From the NCBI GenBank assembly GCA_039630415.1, contig JBCNVB010000016.1, positions 1-57,924 on the forward strand: 57,924 nt of DNA, in the 5' to 3' direction. The translations under genes were made by a program, and so were the position numbers. The notes below the pieces were generated by a model. The model saw only the letters and a list, made by a program, of their open reading frames with translations. It made no database searches and had not been told where the DNA came from. The DNA is from a bacterium (lineage in GTDB: Bacteria; DRYD01). This document shows, one piece after another, positions 1 to 14,380 of the stretch. Every line of letters starts with the position of its first letter. The first letter of the stretch is position 1.

Positions 1-261
1 TCAAATATAACGGATTATATTATAAAACAAGAGGAAATATTAAACGAGTTTCCTTTTGTAGTAGTTAACGATAGGACAGTTTTCAAGGTAAGAAATGGAC
101 ACAGCTTCATAAGCCAAAATGTTATACATATAGAAAAAAAAGGAAAATATAACGATAGGAATATCTTTGTGGTCAAAGACAGAAGAAAAGAAAATCTTGC
201 AATAGCTCAATCAGATAACCTAATAAATTTCAAAGTTAAAAGAGTTCTAAAACCTTACTGA
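1..261 (+). CDS. truB: C-terminal fragment of a probable tRNA pseudouridine(55) synthase (5'-truncated by the window edge)
   Basis: Frame 1 is open from base 1 (SNITDYIIKQEEILNEFPFVVV...KVRNG...KVKRVLKPY) to TGA at 259-261, which overlaps the ribF ATG. truB-ribF order is widely conserved. The catalytic region lies outside the window. Confidence 0.55.
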   Translation, partial: SNITDYIIKQEEILNEFPFVVVNDRTVFKVRNGHSFISQNVIHIEKKGKYNDRNIFVVKDRRKENLAIAQSDNLINFKVKRVLKPY

Positions 262-1130
262 TGACAAAATTAATACTCGGTTTTTTTGACGGAATTCATA
301 AAGGACATCAGGAAGTAATCAAAAACGTTTATTCTCAAGATTCTTATTTGATTACTTTCGATACCAGTCCAAAATTATTTTTCAAAAACGAAAATAATTC
401 CCTTCTTACAACAAATAACGAAAAAGTAGAAATACTAAAAAAAATTTTCCCTGACCTAAAAGTAGAGTTTCTCATCTTTAAAAATATCTGTGATTTATCC
501 CCTGAACAATTTATTAAGTATCTTAAAAATCTATTCGACTTTAAAGTAATTTCTGTTGGATACGACTTTAAATTTGGTAAGAATGCGGAAGGCAATGTAA
601 ATACACTTAAGAAACTATCTAAAAAATATAATTTCGAATTGGTTGTTCAAAAAAAGGTTTTATACAAAAATAGGGCTATCCATAGTTCATTGATTAGGAA
701 CTACCTTATAAACTATCCTTTAAGAATGGAAGATGTTTTTAATATGTTGGGAAGGTTTTACCAAATTAGTGGAATAGTTATCGAGGGTAAAAAGATTGGT
801 AGGAAAATAGGTTTTCCTACGGCAAATATCCTGGTTCCACCTTACAAAGTTATACCTTATTTCGGAATTTATAAGGCAAAAGTGAGAATATTAAATAATG
901 ATTTTAAGGATAGAATTTTTGATGGACTTTTATATATTGGTCCCCGACCAGTTATAAATAACTATGAAATATCTGTTGAGGTTTGGATTAAAGATTTTAA
1001 CCATGAAGTATACTACCAACCTGTTGTAGTCGATATAATAAAATTTATAAGAAAAGTAAAGAGTTTCAAGAATTTAAACGCGATGGTTAAGCAAATAGAA
1101 AAAGATATAGAAATTGCTTTTGTAGATTAA
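261..1130 (+). CDS. ribF: Bifunctional riboflavin kinase / FAD synthetase
   Basis: Motifs GFFDGIHKGHQ, VGYDFKFG, SSLIR, GRKIGFPTAN, and a C-terminal IR..K.F..L..QI..D. Confidence 0.95.
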   Translation: MTKLILGFFDGIHKGHQEVIKNVYSQDSYLITFDTSPKLFFKNENNSLLTTNNEKVEILKKIFPDLKVEFLIFKNICDLSPEQFIKYLKNLFDFKVISVGYDFKFGKNAEGNVNTLKKLSKKYNFELVVQKKVLYKNRAIHSSLIRNYLINYPLRMEDVFNMLGRFYQISGIVIEGKKIGRKIGFPTANILVPPYKVIPYFGIYKAKVRILNNDFKDRIFDGLLYIGPRPVINNYEISVEVWIKDFNHEVYYQPVVVDIIKFIRKVKSFKNLNAMVKQIEKDIEIAFVD

Positions 1131-1230
1131 TCGTTTTTCATATGTAGTATAAATCTAATACTGCTTGTGGATTAAGATGTCATTTCGAATTGGGCAAATT
1201 CTGTAAGGATAAGGCCAAATTCTTGTTTGT

Positions 1231-2793
1231 CTAAATGCTATTCATAGTATTTCCAATAAGTATTTCTTCTACAGAATTGAAATATTTATCTGATTTAAGG
1301 AATACTCCTTCAAGTCCTTTTCCTCCGTTAAACGGACGTTTTGTATCTGCAAATAAACCTTCTTCTATTGCTTTAAACAACCCTTTTTCTTCTACAGTTT
1401 TTAATAATTCGAAAGCCTTTTGCTGCAAATACTTTGCTCTTTCCTCTATCAACCCTTTATCTTTTATTACTATTTCTTTTGAGAAGTCTTTTGCAGCGTT
1501 GAATGTGTATTTTACTGCTTTTAAACTAAGGTATCTGTCTTGTAGAAGTGGAGTATGTATTGCTTCTGTTAACACTCCTATTAGGTGTATGTGCTGATCT
1601 GTTAGAATTGAAACTAAGTTGAACATGTTATCAATGATATGTGTGTGGAATATATTTCCTGTTACCCATCTTGTTGGTGGCATGTATTTTAATGGGCAAT
1701 TAGGGAAAAGATTTCTTATTAGTAGTGCTTGTGCTAATTCATAAAGGAAAGAGTTTTCAATATCTGGCCTTATTTCATAAGCATGCCCTAACCCTATTAA
1801 ATTATCAGGCATGTTGCATTTTTTAGCAAATTCATAATTGATATAATGTGAAGAGATTATCGTATAACCTTTTTCAAACGCATCTGCTGTTGTTAGATAA
1901 TTGTCTTCTCCCGTATTTATTATTATTCCTGCTAATGTTATTATTAATCTTGAAAAATATTGATCTATAAAGGTTCTTTGTGGATTGATGTCTCTAAAGA
2001 GTATTCCATACATACTGTCATTAAGTAGCATATCTAATCTTTCTATTGCTGCTAATGCTGCTATTTCTGGCATACATAATCCTGATGAGTAATTTACAAG
2101 CATCAGGTATCTTTTTTGTTTTTCCATTTCATTATCTAATGCTTCCCTTATTAACCTGAAGTTTGCTTGGGTAGCAAAAGTCCCTCCATAACCTTCTGTT
2201 GTAAGTCCTTCCGGAACATAATCGATTAAACTTTGTGCTGATGATCTTATAACAGCGATACAATCTGCTCCCTGTCTTACTGCAGATAAAGCTTGTAATC
2301 TATCTTCGAAAATATTTCCTGTTGCTACGATTACGTATATCCAGGGAGTTGGAGGAAGTCCGTATTTTGATATTAATTCTTCTCTTTTTTCTTTTTGTTT
2401 TAATATTAAATTAATTCCTTCTTGTGCTAACTTGTTTGCTACCTCTTTGTATTTGTAAATTTCTTTTTTTACTTCTTTTATATGCTGGACTGTTATTTTT
2501 TCTATCATTTCTAAGGTTTTATGTATATCTTGATTTGATTTATGGTAAAGAAATGCTGCTAAATAGGATATTCCATCATTTATGATACCTGCTTGTATTG
2601 CTTTATCTACGAGTATATTTGGATATGGTATTCCTTCTTCGTTTGCTCCATTTATCCCCATTATTCTTAATGTTGCTCTTTCTATACTAACAGTTGATCT
2701 TTGTTTAATAAAATCGAAGACATCATTTACTATTTTTTTTGCTGTTTTATGTGAAAGGTGAGCTATATTTTTATCATAATTAATTTTTATCAT
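1231..2793 (-). CDS. kamD: Lysine 5,6-aminomutase alpha subunit (AdoCbl/PLP dependent)
   Basis: Motifs STVSIER, YVIVATGNIFED, AVIRSSAQSLIDYVP, GGTFATQANF, NYSSGLCMPEIA, INTGEDNYLTTADA and KYMPPT. Start set at ATG 2793 behind a GGAGGT SD; the ORF track starts at 2823. Confidence 0.92.
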   Translation of the reverse strand: MIKINYDKNIAHLSHKTAKKIVNDVFDFIKQRSTVSIERATLRIMGINGANEEGIPYPNILVDKAIQAGIINDGISYLAAFLYHKSNQDIHKTLEMIEKITVQHIKEVKKEIYKYKEVANKLAQEGINLILKQKEKREELISKYGLPPTPWIYVIVATGNIFEDRLQALSAVRQGADCIAVIRSSAQSLIDYVPEGLTTEGYGGTFATQANFRLIREALDNEMEKQKRYLMLVNYSSGLCMPEIAALAAIERLDMLLNDSMYGILFRDINPQRTFIDQYFSRLIITLAGIIINTGEDNYLTTADAFEKGYTIISSHYINYEFAKKCNMPDNLIGLGHAYEIRPDIENSFLYELAQALLIRNLFPNCPLKYMPPTRWVTGNIFHTHIIDNMFNLVSILTDQHIHLIGVLTEAIHTPLLQDRYLSLKAVKYTFNAAKDFSKEIVIKDKGLIEERAKYLQQKAFELLKTVEEKGLFKAIEEGLFADTKRPFNGGKGLEGVFLKSDKYFNSVEEILIGNTMNSI

Positions 2794-2952
2794 AAATCCA
2801 ACCTCCATATTACTCTTTTTCAATAAAAATTCTATGCATTTTTTTACTTACCTTGTCTTATATAAACGAAAGTTAAAAAAATGTTAAAAAAGTTAGTTTT
2901 TTTTAGGAATTGTAAAAAAAAGGTTTAAATAAAAAATAGGGGGTGTAAGAAA

Positions 2953-4578
2953 ATGAGAAAAGCTTATATTCTTTATCTATGGCTTGCCCTCTTTACGATG
3001 TTTATCTCTTTCTTTTCTATTATCCTTTTTAACTACCTCGGCTCAGATATAAAAATAACAAGAAAATTAGTGAAAGATACACAGTATTACAGTATTATAA
3101 AAAGTGTGGTAATTGTAGCTACGGAAAATTATAGAGTAGGACGATACACAGGGGATTACAACTTTAAGGGATATAATTTTTCATTCTCTGCTCGGCGTAT
3201 TTCTCCTACAAGATTACTTGTCGATATTAGTGAAAATGATCAAATGACTGCTAAGGTTATTGTCCAGGACAAACTCCTACTTTCTGATATTAATGTGTAT
3301 TTTGTAAAAAAATCTGAAGGAACTACAACTTTAAGTAGTAATACAACTTTAAGTAGTAATACAACTTATAGTAATTTTGTTACTACCGCTGATTCTATCT
3401 CTATAACAGCAGATCAAAAAATTTTTGACAGAGCTTTTATCGATCCTCAAACTACTGTTAATGGGCAAGGAGTTGAAGAAAAAAGAGATAAAGACAAAAA
3501 ATACTATATTTTCCATAATTTGGAAGAATTAAAAAAGTATGCCAATTATGCTGGTTTTGTGCGTTCTGACTTAGATCAGTTTTTAATTAATTCATATACT
3601 TCAACCAGGGATTTTTTAAGATCAAAAAGTGTAAGTAGCAGAACTTTTCCCGATTTGACTCTTGATCTAACTAAGTATGGCTCTATTTATATAGCTGACA
3701 AAGTAAATCAGAAAGAGGTACAAAGTGTTAGAATAAAATTCTATCCTAATGATAGAAACCAACAAATATTTTTTGATGTTTTTTACAGAGGATCTTATGG
3801 ATGGGGATCAAGCAATGGTGTTGATAGATATAATTATTATCTAATAAATCAACCAACGACGATTGATATAATACCTGCCAATACTGTAACTAATGATCAA
3901 AATTTACAAACTTATCTTGATAGTCTATTAAATCCCCCTCCTGGTTCTCAACCTGTTAACCCAAATTCGCCTTATCCTTTTGAGTTACGACCTGAAAATG
4001 GTTATGTTTACAAAGTTTTGCTTGTTTATGGGCAAGGAGGTAATTTAGAAAGAAGCATTGTTTATAAAACAGCAAATGACAAGACTATGATTTTTTCTGA
4101 TGTTAACGTTGAAATTGGTAGTGATAATCCCAATACATTCAATAGTGGAATTATAAATAACCCTGTTCTTCTTGTAACTAGCCAAAATATAAATATTTTA
4201 GGACATATTGTTTATCAAGAATTTGGTAGTATAGAAAACTTTGTAAATTTTGCAGAAAACAATTCTTTTAATTTCCCTGCTGACTCTAAAGGTAGCTTCT
4301 ATGCTATTGCTAAAAATATAACTGTGAATTCAATCTCATTTACTTCTAATGACTATCTTATTTTAAATGGGAATTTTGTCGCATTTTATGATCAAAATAG
4401 CACAATGAGCATAACAAATAAATACATCAAGAAACTATATTATTTTGGTACTAATATTGCATATAGCAGGTATAATCCTTATAAAGAAAAAGTGATTACT
4501 GATTATAGAGGAGGAGATAATATATTCAATGCAAAATTTTCTACTTGTAGGGTATTAGGTATTTACTTTTTAAAATGA
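2953..4578 (+). CDS. PilX/GspK-like pilus-associated protein with N-terminal hydrophobic helix and large beta-rich domain
   Basis: The N-terminus MRKAYILYLWLALF resembles a prepilin leader lacking Glu+5. The body is Asn/Ser/Thr rich, and the gene overlaps a PilC-type gene. Confidence 0.45.
   Translation: MRKAYILYLWLALFTMFISFFSIILFNYLGSDIKITRKLVKDTQYYSIIKSVVIVATENYRVGRYTGDYNFKGYNFSFSARRISPTRLLVDISENDQMTAKVIVQDKLLLSDINVYFVKKSEGTTTLSSNTTLSSNTTYSNFVTTADSISITADQKIFDRAFIDPQTTVNGQGVEEKRDKDKKYYIFHNLEELKKYANYAGFVRSDLDQFLINSYTSTRDFLRSKSVSSRTFPDLTLDLTKYGSIYIADKVNQKEVQSVRIKFYPNDRNQQIFFDVFYRGSYGWGSSNGVDRYNYYLINQPTTIDIIPANTVTNDQNLQTYLDSLLNPPPGSQPVNPNSPYPFELRPENGYVYKVLLVYGQGGNLERSIVYKTANDKTMIFSDVNVEIGSDNPNTFNSGIINNPVLLVTSQNINILGHIVYQEFGSIENFVNFAENNSFNFPADSKGSFYAIAKNITVNSISFTSNDYLILNGNFVAFYDQNSTMSITNKYIKKLYYFGTNIAYSRYNPYKEKVITDYRGGDNIFNAKFSTCRVLGIYFLK
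3324..3375 (+). repeat. In-frame 18-bp tandem repeat (TACAACTTTAAGTAGTAA x2 plus a partial copy) encoding TTLSSN-TTLSSN-TTYSN
   Basis: Read directly from the sequence. Confidence 0.9.
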
Positions 4579-5591
4579 GTATGAAATCTACGGAAAAATT
4601 AACATTTATTTTAATATTTAGATATTTGTTGGAAAGTGGGATACCTTTGATCCATTCATTAAACATCATTGAAAAAACTTTTAGTAAATATGCAAACAAA
4701 ATAAATCAAGTAAGAAGGATGGTTAATAACGGGCAACCTTTGTTTTATTCTTTGCAGAAATCCAATCTTTTTAATCAATTTGAAACTTCAATTATAAAGA
4801 TAGGAGAAAATACTGAGAATTTGCATTATGCATTGAAGAAATTAGAGGATTTGCTTGTAAAAAGACAAAATTTATCACAAAACATGATAAAATCTCTTAT
4901 CTACCCCCTGATTTTCCTTTTTGTTCTTTCTTTTATAATGATACTATTTAAAAATTTGATAATTCCCGCTTTTACGAATTTGTATGTTGATATGGGTATA
5001 ACTCCTCCTGCTGCTTTTAAATTCCTTAACTTTTTGACAACTATTTTTGATATTAAAGTTGTAACATTTTTGGGTATTCTCATAGGTTCATTGCTTTTTA
5101 TTATTATTAACCTTTTTAAGGCTAATTTAAAAACTTTTTACCGATATATTTTTTCTATTCCTGTAATAGGTAAGATATTTTATAATTCGTATGTGTCTTT
5201 AGTTTTAAATTTGTGGGCTACAGCTTTGGAAAGTGGGTTACCTTATTCTTTAACGTTCAAAATATTGGAAGAAGAAACAGTGGAACCTTTTTCTTCTTTT
5301 TTCTCTAAGATGTTTGATAGAACAAAAAAAGGAGAGTTATATGAAATAGTTAATTTTGATAACACTTTTAAGACAATGTATGTAAAGCAAATGAATGCTG
5401 CTTTGGAAAGTGGGGAGGTGCCTTTTACTCTTAGGAAGTTGGCTGAAATGGCTGAAATTGAAGCTAATGCTGCACTCGATACTTTCAACAGAGTTATCGA
5501 ACCAGCTATGGCCATAATAGCAGGGTTTATAACTGCCACCCTTTGCTTATCCATCTTTTTACCCATAATGTACCTTATAAGGAGTATGTAA
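4575..5591 (+). CDS. pilC: Type II secretion / type IV pilus inner-membrane platform protein (GspF/PilC family)
   Basis: Duplicated T2SSF domains (LLESGIPL..SL, IGENT..L, LIYP; ALESGLP, ESGE, IEP) and a C-terminal SIFLPI. Confidence 0.85.
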   Translation: MSMKSTEKLTFILIFRYLLESGIPLIHSLNIIEKTFSKYANKINQVRRMVNNGQPLFYSLQKSNLFNQFETSIIKIGENTENLHYALKKLEDLLVKRQNLSQNMIKSLIYPLIFLFVLSFIMILFKNLIIPAFTNLYVDMGITPPAAFKFLNFLTTIFDIKVVTFLGILIGSLLFIIINLFKANLKTFYRYIFSIPVIGKIFYNSYVSLVLNLWATALESGLPYSLTFKILEEETVEPFSSFFSKMFDRTKKGELYEIVNFDNTFKTMYVKQMNAALESGEVPFTLRKLAEMAEIEANAALDTFNRVIEPAMAIIAGFITATLCLSIFLPIMYLIRSM

Positions 5592-5592
5592 A

Positions 5593-6144
5593 ATGAGAAA
5601 GGGTTTTACTTTACCTGAATTAATCGTTGCAACAGGACTGGGTATGCTTTTAATCCTTATTATATTCATGTCTACAATAACTATACAAAGAGTTGGTTTC
5701 CAACTTTATAAAAAATATAGCATAGCTCTTTCTTCCAAAACTATGTTAAATAAAATTTCTAAAGAGTTGGCTAAAAATATTTCTCCTATTAGTGGGCAAA
5801 ATCCCATAAGGCAGGTCACGAATAACTCTGTTGAGTTTTACTCGGTAAGAATTGTTCCCAATAATCCCAACCCTGTACCTATTATCCAAACTATAACTGT
5901 AAATAGAAATAGAGTTAATCATGGTATAAGTTACACTATTATAAGTGAAGAGAGAGATTTAAATGGTAATCGTTTGGGACAAAGACAAAGTAGCACTTTC
6001 ATCGAAGCTGAGAATTCCAATTTATGGTTTGGAAATCTTCAAAATGTTGCAATTAGAATTTATTTACTAAATCAATTTAATTATAGGGGGCAAAGATATG
6101 AATTATACTATAGTGTTGATGTTCCTATTAATATTATTCAGTGA
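5593..6144 (+). CDS. Prepilin-type N-terminal cleavage/methylation domain protein (minor pilin)
   Basis: Class III signal KG|FTLPEL followed by a hydrophobic helix. Confidence 0.85.
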   Translation: MRKGFTLPELIVATGLGMLLILIIFMSTITIQRVGFQLYKKYSIALSSKTMLNKISKELAKNISPISGQNPIRQVTNNSVEFYSVRIVPNNPNPVPIIQTITVNRNRVNHGISYTIISEERDLNGNRLGQRQSSTFIEAENSNLWFGNLQNVAIRIYLLNQFNYRGQRYELYYSVDVPINIIQ

Positions 6145-6193
6145 AGGTAAAATTGAAAAGGTGTAGAAAAGAAAAAATAGGTAGTGCTGAATA

Positions 6194-6268
6194 CGGGGTG
6201 TAGCTCAGACTGGTTAGAGCGCGTGCCTTAGGAGCACGAGGTCCGCGGTTCAAGTCCGCGCACCCCGA
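6194..6268 (+). tRNA. tRNA with anticodon UAG (Leu) on a tRNA-Pro-type class I body; CCA not encoded
   Basis: Acceptor stem CGGGGTG/CACCCCG plus A73; D stem GCTC/GAGC; anticodon stem CGTGC/GCACG with loop CT-TAG-GA (anticodon 6229-6231); variable loop AGGTC; T arm CGCGG-TTCAAGT-CCGCG. The tRNA call is solid, but its amino-acid identity is uncertain. Confidence 0.93.
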
Positions 6269-6303
6269 CTTAAACCTAACCAACCACATCCAAAAAAATA
6301 AGC

Positions 6304-6834
6304 ATGAAAATAACAGTTACTTTAATATCATCATCTTTCGAATCTAACCAGTACCCCAAAGGAATTGCCTGTGCACAATGCCATATACAAACTAAAAATA
6401 TCGAACTATCTTTTAGCTATGTAAGAAAAGCTGATGATTCTACAATAGAGGCATTCGTCGAAAACGATAATTTATGCCAAAAATTAGCTATCCAAAAAGC
6501 ACTAAAACAAATCAAATACATTGAATCTGCTGAATTCGAACCACAAGAAATAGAAACACAAGAACAACAAGAAACTAATTTAACTAAAAAAATATCCTAC
6601 AAGCAAAAGGTTATAGAAATCGTGAATCTTCTCAATTGGAACATAGAAAAGCTATCTCGATTTGTATATAGGTACAAGAATAAGAAGCTTAACGAACTAA
6701 CTGAAAAAGAGTGGGCACAAATATACAATCAGCTTTCGAATTTCTTGCAATCTAACCTATCTTTGCCTAAATCTGAACCACAAACTGTACAGGATGAAAT
6801 AATAAAACCAGAGGAGTGGGAGCAAATTTTGTGA
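6304..6834 (+). CDS. Hypothetical protein
   Basis: 176-aa ORF filling the gap between the tRNA and the ABC gene; no family confidently recognised. Confidence 0.7.
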   Translation: MKITVTLISSSFESNQYPKGIACAQCHIQTKNIELSFSYVRKADDSTIEAFVENDNLCQKLAIQKALKQIKYIESAEFEPQEIETQEQQETNLTKKISYKQKVIEIVNLLNWNIEKLSRFVYRYKNKKLNELTEKEWAQIYNQLSNFLQSNLSLPKSEPQTVQDEIIKPEEWEQIL

Positions 6835-6842
6835 TTTAGCAA

Positions 6843-7571
6843 ATGCTTGAAGTAAAGGACATTCACAAAACCTACCGTAGGGGTAAAGAAACCATATATG
6901 CTTTAAGAGGGCTAACCTTTAGTATATCCAAAAACGATGCGTTTGGTTTAATTGGTCCCAACGGAGCTGGTAAAACCACAACTATCAAAGCCATCTTGAA
7001 TCTCATTAACCTGGACAAAGGTCAAATAACCATAGACGGTATAGATGTAAGATCATACGAAGCAAGAAGAATGATAGGATACGCTCCAGAAATACCCTAC
7101 TATCCTATACACATTCCTGCAATTAAACTCCTTAAAACCTACATCTCACTATATAATCTACAGATTCCAAAGGAAAAAATCGAGTACTACTTCGAGCTTG
7201 TTAAATTATCAAAGTTTATGCATCTTCCTTTATCAAACTACTCCAAAGGAATGCAACAAAGGTTTAGTATATTACAAGCTATAATCATAGAGCCCAAACT
7301 ACTAATTTTGGATGAGCTAACAAGTGGACTTGATCCGATCGGACAATACGAAATACTCGAAATAGTTAAGAAACTTAAAAACCAAACCACTATTCTTTTC
7401 ACTTCTCACAACCTAGCTGAAATAGAACAGATATGCGACAAAGTAATGATAATCAACAAGGGAAGAAGCATATTTTACGGTACAGTTGACGAACTTAAGA
7501 ATACCTACAAAGCTGATCTGTACAAGATATTCTTTGACTTGATAACACAGGATAATCAAAGTACGGGGTGA
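6843..7571 (+). CDS. ABC transporter ATP-binding protein (ABC-2/exporter type)
   Basis: Walker A GPNGAGKTT, signature YSKGMQQR, Walker B LILDE, H-loop TSH. Confidence 0.93.
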   Translation: MLEVKDIHKTYRRGKETIYALRGLTFSISKNDAFGLIGPNGAGKTTTIKAILNLINLDKGQITIDGIDVRSYEARRMIGYAPEIPYYPIHIPAIKLLKTYISLYNLQIPKEKIEYYFELVKLSKFMHLPLSNYSKGMQQRFSILQAIIIEPKLLILDELTSGLDPIGQYEILEIVKKLKNQTTILFTSHNLAEIEQICDKVMIINKGRSIFYGTVDELKNTYKADLYKIFFDLITQDNQSTG

Positions 7572-7575
7572 TAAA

Positions 7576-9486
7576 ATGGAAAAATCAATAGAAAGTTCCA
7601 TTGAAAGATTGAAAGTTGCCTATACTCCTTCACAACAAACCATCGAAAATTCAAACATCTATAAAATAATCAGTCAAGAAAACTTGTCATATTGGGAATT
7701 TTACAAAAAGTCGATATCTGATCCCGAATGGTTCTGGAGGAGATTTTTTAAGGATATAAACTTCAAGTGGATAGAAGAGCCAAAGAAAATAGTAGAGGGT
7801 AGTGGGATAGATACTAAGTGGTTTGTAGGTGGTAAAATAAACATATCTATCAACTGTCTAGATACCCCCAAAGAAAAGATCGCAGTAATAGAAGTAGATG
7901 AAAACGGATTCGAAAGAATAATCACATATGGAGAACTCGAAGAAAAAGTTAATAAACTTTCAAACTTTTTAGCCAATTTTGGAATAGAAGTGGGGGATAG
8001 AGTTGCTTTATATATGCCTCTATCAATACAAAGTGTTATATGTTTTTTAGCAATTGCTAGGATAGGTGCTATATGTGTACCTCTTTTTTCTGGATTTGGT
8101 AAGGAGGCTATAAGTGTAAGGCTAAAGGCTTCTAACGCAAAAATGGTCATCAGTTTCTCTCGTAATTGCAGGAGAGGTAAACTAATAGATATGAGAAGTA
8201 TTCTAGAGCAGTCCTTGGAAGAAACAAATGTTTCAAAAGTTTTGTACATAGACACTGATGAAAATTTACCAGATAGATGTTCAAGTTACATAAAAGTTCC
8301 TTCATTTGAATCAGATCATCCGCTTATGATAATATACACGTCGGGTACTACGGGTTTGCCTAAGGGGATAATACATTATCACAGTAGTTTTCCTATCAAA
8401 GCTGCACAAGATATGTACCATGTGTTTGATATTAAGCAAGATGACATTGTTACGTGGATTACTGATATAGGTTGGATGATGGGACCATGGTTGATATTCG
8501 GAACTTTAATAAACAGGGCAACTATATTTATCTATAACGGCTCTCCTGATTATCCCGATATTGACATAATCTGGAAAATGGTTGAAAAATACAAAATAAC
8601 ATGTGTGGGCTTATCTCCTTCGTACATTAGGTCAATATCTGAAAAATCAAATGTTAGTCAACTGGAGTTGAGTAGCTTGAGAATGGTAGGTTCTACTGGC
8701 GAGCCTTGGGATGAATACCATTGGGAGTGGACTTTTAAAAACATTTGTAAATCTACTAAGCCTATCATAAACTATTCTGGTGGGACTGAAATCAGCGGTG
8801 GAATACTTGCTAGTATGGGTATTTTTGATATCAAACCTATGAGTTTCAATACACCCGTTCCAGGAATTAGTGTTAGAGTTTTAAATGATGAAGGTAATGA
8901 TGTAGAAGGTCAGGTAGGGTATTTATGTATAGATAATCATAATCCCGGTCTAGCAAAAACTTTCTGGAATGATCATCAAAGGTATATAGAAACTTACTGG
9001 TCTAAATTTGAAAACATTTGGTACCATGGAGATTTAGCATATATAGATAACGATGGTTTTTGGTACATATTGGGAAGGGCGGATGATACTCTTAAAATAG
9101 CTGGCAAGAGAATAGGGCCTGCTGAGTATGAAACAATCATTAATAGTGTCAAGGATGTAAAAGAATCAGCTGTTGTAGGCATACCTGATCAAATAAAGGG
9201 TATGGTCCCATTAGCTTTCGTAGTAGCAAATTCAGATGATTTTGAGAACATAAAGAAAAATATATTTGAAACAGTTATAAACCAACTTGGTAAGCCTTTT
9301 GCTCTTAAGGATGTCATTTTTGTACCCGATCTCCCAAAAACTAGAAATTTTAAAATAATGAGAAGGATACTAAGAGATTTAGTTGTTTATGGACAAATAA
9401 AAGGAGATACGAGTAATCTTGTTAACCCAGACGTTTGTCAACAAATAGGTCAAATTATAACTGAAAATAAAATATCGTTGAGCTAA
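7576..9486 (+). CDS. Acetyl-CoA synthetase-like AMP-dependent acyl-CoA ligase
   Basis: Motifs YTSGTTGLPKG, DIGWMMG, STGEPW, SGGTE, HGD, GRADD and LPKTR..KIMRR. Confidence 0.9.
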   Translation: MEKSIESSIERLKVAYTPSQQTIENSNIYKIISQENLSYWEFYKKSISDPEWFWRRFFKDINFKWIEEPKKIVEGSGIDTKWFVGGKINISINCLDTPKEKIAVIEVDENGFERIITYGELEEKVNKLSNFLANFGIEVGDRVALYMPLSIQSVICFLAIARIGAICVPLFSGFGKEAISVRLKASNAKMVISFSRNCRRGKLIDMRSILEQSLEETNVSKVLYIDTDENLPDRCSSYIKVPSFESDHPLMIIYTSGTTGLPKGIIHYHSSFPIKAAQDMYHVFDIKQDDIVTWITDIGWMMGPWLIFGTLINRATIFIYNGSPDYPDIDIIWKMVEKYKITCVGLSPSYIRSISEKSNVSQLELSSLRMVGSTGEPWDEYHWEWTFKNICKSTKPIINYSGGTEISGGILASMGIFDIKPMSFNTPVPGISVRVLNDEGNDVEGQVGYLCIDNHNPGLAKTFWNDHQRYIETYWSKFENIWYHGDLAYIDNDGFWYILGRADDTLKIAGKRIGPAEYETIINSVKDVKESAVVGIPDQIKGMVPLAFVVANSDDFENIKKNIFETVINQLGKPFALKDVIFVPDLPKTRNFKIMRRILRDLVVYGQIKGDTSNLVNPDVCQQIGQIITENKISLS

Positions 9487-9511: not shown

Positions 9512-11995
9512 ATGAAAACAATCAACTTTAAGGACATAGAGGAGAAATGGCAAAAATTTTGGGAAGAAAATGAGGTTTACAAAGTAGAAAAAGATGAAAC
9601 CAAAAAAAAGTACTATGTTTTGGAAATGTTTCCGTATCCTAGTGGACAACTTCACATGGGGCATGCGAGAAATTACTGCATAGGAGATGCTATTGCGAGG
9701 TATTATTTTATGAAAGGATACAATGTTTTGCATCCTATTGGTTGGGATGCTTTTGGATTACCTGCAGAAAACGCAGCCATAAAAAATAAAATCCATCCTA
9801 AATTGTGGACTCAAAACAATATCCTTAACATGAAAAAACAGCTCAAAAAACTAGGAATCTCTTATGACTGGGGCAGAGAGATAGATACCTCTTCTCCTGA
9901 ATATTATAAATTTACTCAGTGGATGTTTCTTAAACTATTTGAAAACGATATGGTATACCGAAAAAAGGGAATGGTAAATTGGTGTTATGAATGTCAAACG
10001 GTATTGGCAAATGAGCAGGTTATAGATGGTAAATGCTGGAGATGTAAACAAACTGTTGGAAAAAAAGAATTAGAACAATGGTACATTAGAATAACCAAAT
10101 ATGCTGAAAGCTTACTCGAAGAACTTGAAAAATTAAACGGTTGGAGTAATCACGTAAAACAAATGCAAATCAATTGGATAGGTAAAAGCAAAGGAGCAAG
10201 AATAAAATTTTGGGTACCAGAAATTAATGAGTACATAGAAGTTTTCACAACTAGAGCGGATACTTTACCAGGTGTTACATTTATCTCTATTGCACCAGAG
10301 CATCCAATAGTTAACAAAATTCTAGAGCTTACGAACGATCAAGTGATAAGAGAATATATTCAAAGATCAATGTCCTTAACTACTACTGAGCGGAATAAAG
10401 AAAAGACGGGAGTATTTACGAACTTTTATGCTCAAAATCCATTAAATCAGAAACTAGTTCCCATATGGATAGCAAATTATGTTTTGTGGGATTATGGTAC
10501 TGGTGCTGTGATGGGTGTACCTGCACATGATCAAAGAGACTACGATTTTGCCAAAACCTATAACTTACCAATAATTCCTGTTATAATGCCACCTTACGAA
10601 GTTAACGAGAAAGCATATGAGGAACCGGTGGGACAAATGTTTAACACCGGCTATGTTGAAGAAATAAATGTTGACGGTATGGATTGTAATCAATTCAGAA
10701 AATTTGTTGTCAAGTATCTAGAAAGCAAAGGTTTAGCAAGAGAAGAAGTTGCTTACAAAATAAAGGATTGGTTAATTTCAAGGCAGAGATACTGGGGGGC
10801 TCCAATACCGATAGTTTATTGCGATTCATGTGGTATAGTTCCTGTACCTTACGAAGATTTACCTGTATTGCTACCCGAAAATGTAAACATAACTGGAAAA
10901 GGTGATTCTCCATTGGCATATTGTCAAGAGTTTGTTAACACTACTTGTCCGAAGTGCAAGGGTAAGGCAATAAGGGAAACAGATACAATGGACACTTTCA
11001 TGTGTTCTAGCTGGTATTTCTGGAGATATACCAATCCGAAACTTACAGATAAACCTTTTGACTATGATGATTTGAAGTATTGGTTTCCGGTTGATCAATA
11101 CATAGGTGGGATAGAGCATGCTGTAATGCACTTGCTTTACTCGCGTTTCTTGAGTCACTTTCTTTATGATTTAGGATTAGTACCTTGTAAGGAGCCTTTT
11201 GAGAATTTGTTAAATCAGGGTATGGTTTGTAAAGATGGGAAAGCTATGTCTAAATCGTTGGGTAATATTGTATCTATTGAAGAGGTTGTAGAGAAGTATG
11301 GTGCTGATACGGGTAGAGTATTTGAACTTTTTGTTGCTCCTCCAGAAAAAGATATTGAATGGTCGGATAAAGGAATTGAGGGAGTTCATAGATTTATAAC
11401 CAGATATTTTAAATTCTGTGATGAGTTAATAAATTCCGTACGAAATAATTTATCAACCCCAAGAGTTAATAATAACTCTGAAGAAACCTTACCGGACAAT
11501 GCTAAAGATATTCTAAGTAAAGTTTATCTTACTCTTAAGAAAGTAACTGATGAATTTGAGACGAAAAGATATCATTTCAATACTTCAATAGCTTCGTTGA
11601 TGGAACTTTTGAATTACCTTGAGGATAGGAAGGAATTGGTTGAGAAAATGGGTAGGTATCACAAGGAGTTGATATTAGAGGTATTGATAAAGTCGATATC
11701 TCCATTTGCTCCGCATTTGGCTGAAGAGTTGTGGAGCAGATGGGGTAAAGAAGGAAGTGTTTTTAAGAGTAACTGGCCAGAAATCAAGCAGGAATATCTT
11801 TTCCAACAGAAGGTAATCATACCAATACAGATAAATGGTAAACTGAGGGGACAAGTTGAAGTGGATACTGACACTGAACTAGATCAAATACTAAACATGG
11901 TCTATCATGACCCAAAAATATACAAGTATTTGCAAGGCAAACAAATAAAAAACACTATATTTGTTAAGAATAAAATCCTTAATATAGTTATCTAA
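9512..11995 (+). CDS. leuS: Leucine--tRNA ligase (single chain)
   Basis: MFPYPSGQLHMGH (HIGH), CP1 editing motifs TTRADT and GTGAVMGVPAHDQRD, WLISRQRYWG, AMSKS, and C-terminal QINGKLRG. Confidence 0.97.
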   Translation: MKTINFKDIEEKWQKFWEENEVYKVEKDETKKKYYVLEMFPYPSGQLHMGHARNYCIGDAIARYYFMKGYNVLHPIGWDAFGLPAENAAIKNKIHPKLWTQNNILNMKKQLKKLGISYDWGREIDTSSPEYYKFTQWMFLKLFENDMVYRKKGMVNWCYECQTVLANEQVIDGKCWRCKQTVGKKELEQWYIRITKYAESLLEELEKLNGWSNHVKQMQINWIGKSKGARIKFWVPEINEYIEVFTTRADTLPGVTFISIAPEHPIVNKILELTNDQVIREYIQRSMSLTTTERNKEKTGVFTNFYAQNPLNQKLVPIWIANYVLWDYGTGAVMGVPAHDQRDYDFAKTYNLPIIPVIMPPYEVNEKAYEEPVGQMFNTGYVEEINVDGMDCNQFRKFVVKYLESKGLAREEVAYKIKDWLISRQRYWGAPIPIVYCDSCGIVPVPYEDLPVLLPENVNITGKGDSPLAYCQEFVNTTCPKCKGKAIRETDTMDTFMCSSWYFWRYTNPKLTDKPFDYDDLKYWFPVDQYIGGIEHAVMHLLYSRFLSHFLYDLGLVPCKEPFENLLNQGMVCKDGKAMSKSLGNIVSIEEVVEKYGADTGRVFELFVAPPEKDIEWSDKGIEGVHRFITRYFKFCDELINSVRNNLSTPRVNNNSEETLPDNAKDILSKVYLTLKKVTDEFETKRYHFNTSIASLMELLNYLEDRKELVEKMGRYHKELILEVLIKSISPFAPHLAEELWSRWGKEGSVFKSNWPEIKQEYLFQQKVIIPIQINGKLRGQVEVDTDTELDQILNMVYHDPKIYKYLQGKQIKNTIFVKNKILNIVI

Positions 11996-11999
11996 GTTT

Positions 12000-13016
12000 G
12001 TGGTAAAATCGAGTTGGTATAGTCTTAGAAACCTTGAATTGGAAAAATTCCTAAGAAAACTGAATAAATTTTTTGTTTGTTTTGATAGTGAGGGTGAATT
12101 AACTCATAATACCGATTCGTTTGGTGATACAGTACTGCATCAAAAATTTATAGATCAAATTATAGAAAAGATCAGGATTTTTTACATTGAAAATAGGCAA
12201 GCTCTAAAAAGATTAAAAAAAATTCAGAAAATCGATATACCTTTCGAAATAAATCATTTAACGATTAAACTAAATTTTTTGGTTGTACCTTTAAAAAGCA
12301 GAATTTGCTTTATATTGTGCAATGATTATCATTTAAAATATGAAATTCTGAAGGTAAATATAATAAATGCAATTTCTCATGAGCTTAAAACGCCTTTGAC
12401 TATTATCAAGGGCTATGTACAGTATATTATGAAAGCTCAAATAAAGCAGGAATCTCTTAGGGATATAATGCAAATAATGTTAAGTGAGATATACAGACTG
12501 GAAGAGAGAATATATGAACTTGTAGAAGTATCTAAATTTTATTCAGACTCAGTTTCCATAAAAAAGGATTCATTTTCTGTTAGTAAGTTGATAGATATGG
12601 TGGTAAGTAGGAGTATGCCAAAAATAGAGTCCAAAAAAATAGATCTTAAGGTAGAAATAGAAGGTGATGATTTTGAAATTGTGGCGGATTTTGAAAAGAT
12701 AAAGTATATGCTATCAGAGCTGCTAGAGAATGCTATAAAGTATGGAAGGGATAGAATTGTAATAAAAACATGCAAGGTAAGAAAAGGTTTTCTTTTGAGT
12801 GTCATAGATAATGGAATCGGAATGCCTAAAGAAATTGTTGATAATGTAGTCGATTTATTTATAAGAACTGATAATGAACTGTCTAGAAGGATATATGGTT
12901 TGGGTGTTGGGTTGTTCTTAGTAAAGAAAATAGTAGAGTATCATAAAGGGGAAATACAAATCTATTCCGAGCCAAATAAAGGTACTGAGTTTAAGGTTTT
13001 CATACCTTATAGTTAG
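12000..13016 (+). CDS. Cytoplasmic sensor histidine kinase
   Basis: H-box SHELKTPL, N-box ENAIKY, DNGIGM and GLGVGL; no obvious transmembrane segment. Confidence 0.9.
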   Translation: MVKSSWYSLRNLELEKFLRKLNKFFVCFDSEGELTHNTDSFGDTVLHQKFIDQIIEKIRIFYIENRQALKRLKKIQKIDIPFEINHLTIKLNFLVVPLKSRICFILCNDYHLKYEILKVNIINAISHELKTPLTIIKGYVQYIMKAQIKQESLRDIMQIMLSEIYRLEERIYELVEVSKFYSDSVSIKKDSFSVSKLIDMVVSRSMPKIESKKIDLKVEIEGDDFEIVADFEKIKYMLSELLENAIKYGRDRIVIKTCKVRKGFLLSVIDNGIGMPKEIVDNVVDLFIRTDNELSRRIYGLGVGLFLVKKIVEYHKGEIQIYSEPNKGTEFKVFIPYS

Positions 13017-13054: not shown

Positions 13055-14380
13055 ATGGAAATATACAAGTATAAAGTAGCTGAAAAAATTAACATTTTAA
13101 CTGTTGAGCAGAGAGAGAAGCTATTAATACAAGCGGGATACAATCTTTTTAACATAAGTTCTAAATATGTAACGATAGATTTGCTTACTGATAGTGGTAC
13201 GAATGCTTTAAGTGATAAACAGCTTTGTATGATGATGTTGTATGATGAGTCGTATGCTGGTAGTTTGAGTTTTGAAAGATTTATGCAGAGTGCTCAAGAA
13301 TTCTGTAACAAGAGTTTTATAATTCCGGTTCATCAGGGTAGAGCTGCCGAGAAGATCCTCGCTGAAATATTATGCAAAGAGGGAATGTATGTTGTGAGTA
13401 ATGCTCATTTTGATACGGGCTTTGCTATATATAAACATCATAAGGCTATACCTATTAACTTACCTACTCCAGAGTGTATGCAAAATAGTGAGTTTCCTTT
13501 CAAGGGAAATATTGATCTTGATAGGTTTGAAAACTTTATGAAGGAAAATTATTCTAAAGTAAGCCATGTTGTTATGACGATTACAAACAATGCTGTCGGG
13601 GGTCAGCCTGTTGATCTTGATAATCTTATCCAGGCTTACAATATATCGAAAAAGTACGATAAAATCGTGGTTATAGACGGATGCAGAATAGCTGAAAATG
13701 CTATTCTCTATAAAAAGGCAAAAAATTTAAATAGCTCAATAAAGGAGATAATTCATAATTTCACCAAATATTGTGACATATTTTACATGAGTACGAAAAA
13801 AGATGGTATAGCTCATATGGGAGGTTTTTTGGCTACTGATAATGAACAATTTATACCTCTTATTAGAAAGCTAGCCATTTTGTATGAAGGTTTTCCTTCG
13901 TATGGGGGATTATCTGGAAAAGATATGGAGGTAATTGCTTGTGGTTTAAAAGAAGTACTTGAAGAAGATTATCTGGAAGATAGAATAAGACAGGTAGAGT
14001 ATTTAGGTAAGCTTTTAGAAAAGAATGATATACCAGTTATTAAGCCATTTGGTGGGCATGCTGTTTTCATTGACTCAGCTAGTTTTATTTCACACCTTAA
14101 ACCAGAGGATCTTGTTGGCCAATCTTTGGTAGTTGAGATGTATAGGTTGGGAGGAATTAGGGCTGTAGAGGTTGGAACTCTTATGTATGGTAAAGATGCG
14201 ATTAGAAACTTAGTTAGGTTAGCTATACCTAGAAGAACATACACTTATAAGCAATTGGAGTATGTCGCAGATATATTGAATCAAATATCTAAAAATAAGT
14301 ACTCTCTAAAGGGTTATAAAATAGTCCAAGCTGATCCTTTAGTACCTCATTTTACAGCCATTCTCGAGCCTGTAGGTTAG
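13055..14380 (+). CDS. tnaA: Tryptophanase (beta-eliminating lyase family)
   Basis: DLLTDSGT, HQGRAAE and PLP-lysine motif MSTKKDG. HFDT and C-terminal HFTA match tryptophanase rather than tyrosine phenol-lyase (YFTT, FFTA). Confidence 0.85.
   Translation: MEIYKYKVAEKINILTVEQREKLLIQAGYNLFNISSKYVTIDLLTDSGTNALSDKQLCMMMLYDESYAGSLSFERFMQSAQEFCNKSFIIPVHQGRAAEKILAEILCKEGMYVVSNAHFDTGFAIYKHHKAIPINLPTPECMQNSEFPFKGNIDLDRFENFMKENYSKVSHVVMTITNNAVGGQPVDLDNLIQAYNISKKYDKIVVIDGCRIAENAILYKKAKNLNSSIKEIIHNFTKYCDIFYMSTKKDGIAHMGGFLATDNEQFIPLIRKLAILYEGFPSYGGLSGKDMEVIACGLKEVLEEDYLEDRIRQVEYLGKLLEKNDIPVIKPFGGHAVFIDSASFISHLKPEDLVGQSLVVEMYRLGGIRAVEVGTLMYGKDAIRNLVRLAIPRRTYTYKQLEYVADILNQISKNKYSLKGYKIVQADPLVPHFTAILEPVG

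Follow-up and report, generated by a model that had tools for sequence, protein, structure and literature searches.

The tRNA gene at positions 6194 to 6268 of the window (the whole 57,924-nt stretch of DNA that was analyzed, contig C8 of its assembly) combines the body of a proline tRNA with a leucine-type UAG anticodon. Is this a genuine tRNA, or has its anticodon been changed in the course of the assembly? We favor the latter, and give a probability of roughly 85% to the reading that the gene is an ordinary tRNA-Pro(UGG) situated at a chimeric assembly junction and that its odd base is an assembly artifact. The two features that raise the question are:

6194 to 6268, plus strand: tRNA gene, a tRNA-Pro(UGG) body with the assembled anticodon TAG (Rfam tRNA, ARAGORN), forming a shared repeat that encloses a switch of DNA origin
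6230, plus strand: single deviant base at tRNA position 35, A in the assembly and G elsewhere examined (runs X1–X4, relatives, and 27-mer scans)

The Rfam tRNA model matches 6194–6268 on the plus strand with 67.7 bits (E 1.2e-12), and ARAGORN calls a tRNA-Leu(tag) at 6194–6269. In the Rfam alignment, the acceptor stem comprises 7 bp (CGGGGUG/CACCCCG) with C1:G72 at its end, followed by A73. The D stem is GCUC/GAGC, the anticodon stem is CGUGC/GCACG with the loop C-U-UAG-G-A, and the T stem is CGCGG/CCGCG. Every stem is paired without mismatch, G15 and C48 are present, and the variable loop AGGUC has 5 nt, which makes this a class I tRNA. The structural part of the original prediction (a proline body, class I, all stems paired, a UAG anticodon, and a 5-nt variable loop) is therefore confirmed by both the Rfam alignment and ARAGORN. 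The same is true for the claim that one base separates the gene from a tRNA-Pro(UGG): it is 75/76 identical to the tRNA-Pro(UGG) of the same assembly at C23:109066–109141, and the sole difference is G35A at 6230. The anticodon in the assembly reads U34-A35-G36 vs the U34-G35-G36 expected of tRNA-Pro(UGG). The gene carries the C1:G72 pair and A73 that mark tRNA-Pro(UGG), and it is orthologous, by both sequence and position, to the tRNA-Pro(UGG) of relatives. By every test except the assembled base 35, the window tRNA is a canonical tRNA-Pro(UGG).

The assembly (1.40 Mb, 31 contigs, 32% G+C) has an estimated completeness of 89% and a contamination of 1.65%. ARAGORN identifies 42 tRNA genes in it. 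The proline tRNAs are Pro(tgg) at C23:109066–109141 and Pro(ggg) on C2; Pro(cgg) is not found among the 42, where gaps in an assembly of this completeness are not evidence of absence. The five leucine tRNAs, 86–88 nt long, include a normal class II tRNA-Leu(tag) at C10:57139–57226 in addition to four others. An inventory of the genome, as the original prediction proposed, thus finds a separate tRNA-Pro(UGG) and a separate class II tRNA-Leu(UAG). The second or altered proS that it also suggested looking for did not turn up: there is one proS (C4:18583–20217; TIGR00409, 597.9 bits), and no second ProRS or ProRSx-like partner in the assembly scored above the cut-off. In passing, ARAGORN makes two "Met(cat)" calls, and between them no tRNA-Ile(cat) is told apart in this 89% complete assembly.

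The original prediction proposed to examine whether A35 is conserved at the orthologous loci of relatives. The search covered 41 genomes including the assembly itself (G000), with matches in 33, and ARAGORN was run on the best 15 loci. Only the window's own locus is called tag. The other 14 (from G001–G010, G016, G018, G030, and G035) are all tRNA-Pro(tgg), with G at the position equivalent to 6230. Each of nine same-family genomes (G001–G009) has one copy of tRNA-Pro(tgg), 93–99% identical to the window tRNA, and the copies in G003 and G004 are identical to it apart from position 35. Identity of the tRNA itself is uninformative on age, since the G003 tRNA is identical to the C23 copy though its flanks are only ~70–73% identical.

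Sequence collections give the same picture. The A35-bearing 27-mer (6217–6243) has 0 exact matches in genome_contigs and 0 in metagenome_contigs; these scans may omit records of the own genome, so that the result means that A35 was not seen elsewhere. The G35 version of the 27-mer, taken from C23, served as positive control and had hits in 35 metagenome records as well as 30 species genomes from several lineages. Because the G35 27-mer is found in many species genomes, the anticodon arm acts as a between-genome repeat, and the scan shows that this part of tRNA-Pro(UGG) is common to genomes of hot-spring and vent communities. The titles of the records name Candidatus Calescibacterium, Desulfurobacteriaceae, Thermovibrio, Peribacteria, Gracilibacteria, Tepidisphaerales, and others. 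An identical 27-nt anticodon arm across such different lineages could reflect strong conservation or further cross-binned or chimeric contigs.

The flanks of the tRNA were compared with contig C23 of the same assembly, with G004, which represents a sister species, and with the genus members G002–G006. This comparison divides the two contigs into four blocks:

C8:1 to 6193, no strand assigned: block A, G004-like DNA attributed to a second population, reaching the contig start, 97% nucleotide identity to G004:C6:27998–34147
C8:6269 to 14380, plus strand: block B', the main-genome version of a block conserved downstream of tRNA-Pro, 65–73% nucleotide identity to G002–G006
C23:89066 to 109065: block X, ~65–76% identity to all five genus members, collinear as far as tRNA-Pro with G003:C11 and G005:C22
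C23:109142 to 116961: block B, reaching the contig end, 98% identity to G004:C6:34224–42043

The genes of the window that lie in the first two blocks are as follows (functions are assigned with Pfam):

261 to 1130: ribF-like FAD synthetase/riboflavin kinase, block A
1231 to 2823, minus strand: D-lysine 5,6-aminomutase alpha, block A
2953 to 4578: ORF without known function, block A
4575 to 5591: T2SS-F-like protein, block A
5593 to 6144: ORF without known function, block A
6304 to 6834: 176-aa ORF without known function, block B'
6843 to 7571: ABC ATPase, block B'
7576 to 9486: acetyl-CoA-synthetase-like protein, block B'
9512 to 11995: LeuRS (leuS), block B'
12000 to 13016: histidine kinase, block B'
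13055 to 14380: beta-eliminating lyase family protein, block B'

Block A shows only 69–80% identity to the other four genus members. Block B' is present as a single, collinear copy in each of G002–G006 (5/5), and the stretch C8:6194–14073 is only ~70% identical to the G004-like copy at C23:109066–116961. In the base-level alignment, both switches of identity, from 97% to ~70% in C8 and from ~70% to 98% in C23, fall inside the 76-nt tRNA. The 5′ flank of the window tRNA is that of G004 up to tRNA base 1, while its 3′ flank differs from that of G004. Moreover, G004 has A–tRNA-Pro(tgg)–B in one continuous 14-kb stretch, which in the present assembly is divided over the start of C8 and the end of C23. 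Since the identity switches at the tRNA in both contigs and A–tRNA–B is continuous in G004, C8 and C23 look like reciprocal chimeras. In G004, the 20 kb that adjoin this stretch on each side have just 66–80% identity to this assembly, so the G004-like DNA is confined to two contig ends.

Both G004-like blocks are redundant. The main genome has its own ~66–77% identical copies of block A genes at C3:68406–72709 and C23:42215–43278, and block B duplicates B' in the same bin. The gene order X–tRNA-Pro–B-type block is conserved in G003, G005, G002, and G001, and corresponds to the body of C23 joined to the body of C8. The locus shows two features of an interspecies chimeric contig: the identity class changes abruptly at a sequence common to both genomes, and the foreign segment duplicates genes of the bin and has its natural continuation elsewhere.

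As to the content of the bin, it carries ~14 kb of a second species at 97–98% identity to G004, namely window positions 1–6193 together with C23:109142–116961. The G004-like DNA gives rise to apparent second copies of ribF, D-lysine 5,6-aminomutase alpha, the T2SS-F-like gene, the ABC ATPase, the acetyl-CoA-synthetase-like gene, leuS, and further genes; the leuS on C23, the "second" one of the assembly, is part of the G004-like fragment.

Two further observations concern the history of the tRNA-Pro locus in the genus. In G004, block A (ribF to the T2SS-F-like gene; C6:27998–34147) immediately precedes tRNA-Pro(UGG), and its orthologs are located elsewhere in G003 (C24), in G005 (C31/C88), and in the main genome (C3:68406–72709). 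These positions indicate that the G004 lineage has been rearranged with a breakpoint at tRNA-Pro, and the block A–tRNA arrangement of G004 is supported by a contig of run X3 from another study. In addition, C23:108699–108812 holds a tRNA-Pro 3′ fragment of ~24 nt (the 3′ side of the T-arm and the 3′ strand of the acceptor), which is situated ~260 nt upstream of the C23 tRNA-Pro and follows a 13-nt unit repeated in tandem about three times. The fragment may be left over from an old duplication or integration event at tRNA-Pro. The flank that follows it is similar to the 3′ flank of the tRNA in C8 and unlike that in C23, which is a weaker pointer toward a chimera as well. The junction sequence of the fragment is also a loose end in run X1.

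Public sequencing runs provide a view of the locus that is independent of the assembly. Words sampled from window positions 5200–7300 were found in 20 runs from 15 studies; X1 has 0.84 of them, and the 19 other runs, mostly from hot springs, have 0.22–0.39, approximately half the stretch. The Logan contigs of X1–X4, which originate from four different studies (X2–X4 are among the 19 lower-share runs), were compared with window positions 5000–7400. G makes up the entire depth at 6230 in each run: 131.5/131.5 in X1 (three covering contigs; this run holds both halves at 100% identity), 147.8/147.8 in X2 (three covering contigs), 16.7/16.7 in X3 (one), and 243.4/243.4 in X4 (three). A occurs in no covering contig of the 4/4 runs; as Logan contigs (k = 31) break at repeats and lose minor bubble branches, they show that G is present and do not prove that A is absent. 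A 9x A variant next to 78x G, for example, could have dropped out of them. The original prediction had asked for the base support at 6230 and had named, beforehand, G in reads or relatives as the finding that speaks against an unusual tRNA; G is what the contigs of all four runs, with rare variants dropped, and the 14/14 relatives' loci carry. Given that G35 is found in all covering contigs of the four runs, the real gene most likely has G35, i.e., the UGG anticodon of tRNA-Pro. The unusual base has no support in any independent data set examined and is most likely not a real feature.

The contigs also bear on the junction. In X1, block A is represented only by contigs of 179–451 nt that are 100% identical to the window, and block B' by a 6588-nt contig that starts at 6240 and has 0 differences to the window; at this contig level, depth across the junction goes from 3.8–5.1 (A) to 8.97 (B'). 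The tRNA core forms a 55-nt unitig with a depth of 78.4, and this depth indicates that it is common to several or many populations. There is almost no contig over 6064–6193 in X1, which leaves the passage from block A into the tRNA hidden there either way, and X1 may or may not be the sample from which the bin came.

In X3, a 5000-nt contig connects block A, via a tRNA with G35, to a diverged B-type sequence downstream. Its joints, 533 and then 394 nt with 6/39 mismatches, are exactly the spacing and sequence of the B block in C23 and G004. The A-block contig of X2 stops within the tRNA (6243), and a separate 15215-nt contig of the same diverged downstream type starts at 6239. The A-block contig of X4 likewise stops within the tRNA (6253). 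None of the 4/4 runs has a contig that joins block A to B', in k = 31 contigs that break at repeats anyway. B' is missing from X2–X4 save short conserved bits; gaps of this kind in contig data are not used as evidence.

These observations can be accommodated in a model in which sequencing covered two related populations of the same genus at once, namely the bin's main genome and a low-coverage G004-like population. Both would have an identical 76-nt tRNA-Pro(UGG), and the assembler would have crossed over within it. The real molecules would then be A–tRNA–B (G004-like) and X–tRNA–B' (main genome), and the assembly would contain A–tRNA–B' (C8) and X–tRNA–B (C23) instead, as reciprocal chimeric joins. 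The A at 6230 would be a sequencing error or a rare variant picked up during repeat resolution. Assemblers do not invent bases, so the source data presumably included one or more reads that carry this A, which counts against this model. Chimeric joins are common in metagenome assemblies: according to the accessible part of a study of CAMI data, interspecies chimeric contigs occur in 69.4% of near-complete MEGAHIT MAGs and in 20.5% of metaSPAdes MAGs (bioRxiv 10.64898/2026.10.15.759294). In the original prediction, a recent mutation or sequencing error was one of four options, and this option survives, sharpened to an unsupported base at a chimeric junction.

The alternative that survives best is a Campbell-type integration, in which circular G004-like DNA recombined at the tRNA-Pro of the main chromosome and produced X–tRNA(UGG)–B...A–tRNA*–B', after which the redundant copy gained G35A. 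The A35 copy would then be a decaying pseudogene, or an expressed CUA/CUG decoder that carries Pro or stays uncharged. The topology of C8 and C23 fits an integration as well as it fits a chimera, both tRNA copies are structurally intact, and with a normal tRNA-Pro(UGG) and tRNA-Leu(UAG) present a second copy would be free to mutate. However, both G004-like pieces are cut off by contig ends, at lengths of 6.2 and 7.8 kb, and the bin has no high-identity match to the adjoining 20 kb of G004 on each side. Block A is fragmented in X1 and has approximately half the depth of B' there. In addition, the contigs of the 4/4 runs have neither A at 6230 nor a bridge from A to B', and X2–X4 have block A within a free-living G004-like genome, with G35 and without B'. 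Taken together, integration is unlikely. Still less probable is the specific case in which A is real and both tRNA copies reside in one chromosome, i.e., that an integration duplicated tRNA-Pro and the spare copy became, by G35A, a class I reader of CUA and CUG.

Alternatively, the assembler might have reported a real minor allele, carried by a subpopulation of one organism with G35A in its single tRNA-Pro(UGG). In favor of this, A must have occurred in some read or reads, and contig data leave room for low-frequency variants. Codon use in the 641 ORFs of at least 300 aa speaks against it: CCA and CCG make up 4616 of 10456 proline codons, and since this is 44%, a genome with A35 in its only UGG-type tRNA-Pro could hardly live. 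These codons would be left without a reader, there being besides only Pro(ggg) and no Pro(cgg) in the assembly. Together with G in all contigs of four runs and at all relatives' loci, this leaves the allele very improbable.

The functional options, taken jointly, all require that the base is real, and the evidence is against it; we regard them as the least probable of the readings weighed here. They are proline mistranslation of CUA and CUG, a class I tRNA-Leu recruited from tRNA-Pro, and editing of A35 to I, for which we know of no deaminase. A UAG decoder that is efficiently charged with Pro would come at a very high cost, because CTA represents 6394 of 29795 leucine codons (21.5%; same 641 ORFs), and ~2% of all codons would be hit. 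The retained C1:G72, A73, and G36 make some charging by ProRS conceivable. In this context, E. coli ProRS is described, in the available part of the report, as relying on G35, G36, A73, and G72, with tRNAProN carrying U35 still weakly charged (PMC10404621). Partial mistranslation of the ProRSx type, one of the original options, fails on both components: the assembly has one proS (C4:18583–20217) and no second copy above the cut-off, and the A33, A34, and A15:A48 that mark tRNAProX are absent from the window tRNA. The original prediction also pointed to leuS, 3.2 kb downstream, as a sign that the gene had been recruited as a tRNA-Leu. The co-orientation with leuS stands, but not as a sign of recruitment: the leuS neighborhood is ordinary conserved synteny in the genus, and a class II tRNA-Leu(UAG) exists at C10:57139–57226. 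A35 is conserved in 0/14 relatives' loci. Recoding, mistranslation, and tRNA recruitment do not follow from the data, since no organism is shown to have a proline tRNA with a UAG anticodon.

Two other candidates were rejected: a recent segmental duplication of the tRNA with its flank is ruled out by copies that are ~70% identical over ~8 kb outside the tRNA and by one copy in each of five relatives, and an integrative element or att site at the tRNA, suggested by the C23 tRNA fragment, does not explain the pattern of 97–98% vs 70% identity, with no integrase adjoining the window tRNA in the Pfam-annotated neighborhood.

With the chimeric junction as the preferred reading, both the tRNA-Pro(UGG) and the genetic code of the organism are probably normal, and as biology the unusual base most likely has no consequence. 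The locus is instructive as a caution, as identical tRNA genes in co-occurring species behave like between-genome repeats, and a misjoin at such a tRNA combined with one wrong anticodon base produces a look-alike of a recoding tRNA. Likewise, the ~14 kb from a second species, with its additional copy of leuS, was not revealed by the marker-based contamination estimate of 1.65%. Scans for identity-mismatched tRNAs in metagenome bins should therefore check the identity classes of the flanks and the read support first. If A were real and located in one chromosome with the normal copy, the gene would represent either natural Leu-to-Pro mistranslation beyond the tRNAProX family of actinomycetes or an early stage of tRNA isotype switching in a thermophile.

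How does the window tRNA compare with known systems? It shares with the canonical bacterial tRNA-Pro(UGG) C1:G72, A73, G36, G37, the 5-nt variable loop, and G15:C48, and also the conserved position in the genus upstream of the leuS-containing block; the only difference is the assembled A35. Its likeness to class II tRNA-Leu(UAG) is limited to the assembled anticodon and G37, whereas it lacks the long variable arm (5 nt instead) and has C1:G72. The assembly's own tRNA-Leu(tag), at C10:57139–57226, has 88 nt and a long arm, and only 55 of its aligned positions are identical to the 76-nt window tRNA.

The tRNAProX/ProRSx system of Streptomyces and Kitasatospora resembles the window tRNA in its combination of a proline-type acceptor end (C1:G72, A73) with a non-proline anticodon, and in being annotated by that anticodon as another isotype. 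According to the part of the report that is available, tRNAProX has A33, A34, an A15:A48 pair, and G21, its anticodons are AGC, AUU, or AGU, and its genes adjoin a full or truncated proSx, which encodes ProRSx (PMC10404621). In contrast, the window tRNA has U33, U34, G15:C48, and A21, and hence none of these tRNAProX features. It is flanked on each side by an ORF of unassigned function, with the ABC ATPase beyond the downstream one and no proSx nearby; the assembly has a single proS, and the anticodon is not conserved in relatives. By these characters, the window tRNA belongs neither to the class II tRNA-Leu nor to tRNAProX.

Interspecies chimeric MAG contigs resemble the window locus in that the identity changes abruptly at a short repeat common to both genomes, a reciprocal partner contig exists, the foreign part is redundant, and the marker-based contamination is low (here 1.65%); going by the X1 contigs, the depths of the two parts would differ as well. 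The accessible part of the study of such contigs makes no mention of tRNAs (bioRxiv 10.64898/2026.10.15.759294). Unlike those contigs, the window junction also carries one differing base midway along the repeat, and this base mimics an anticodon change.
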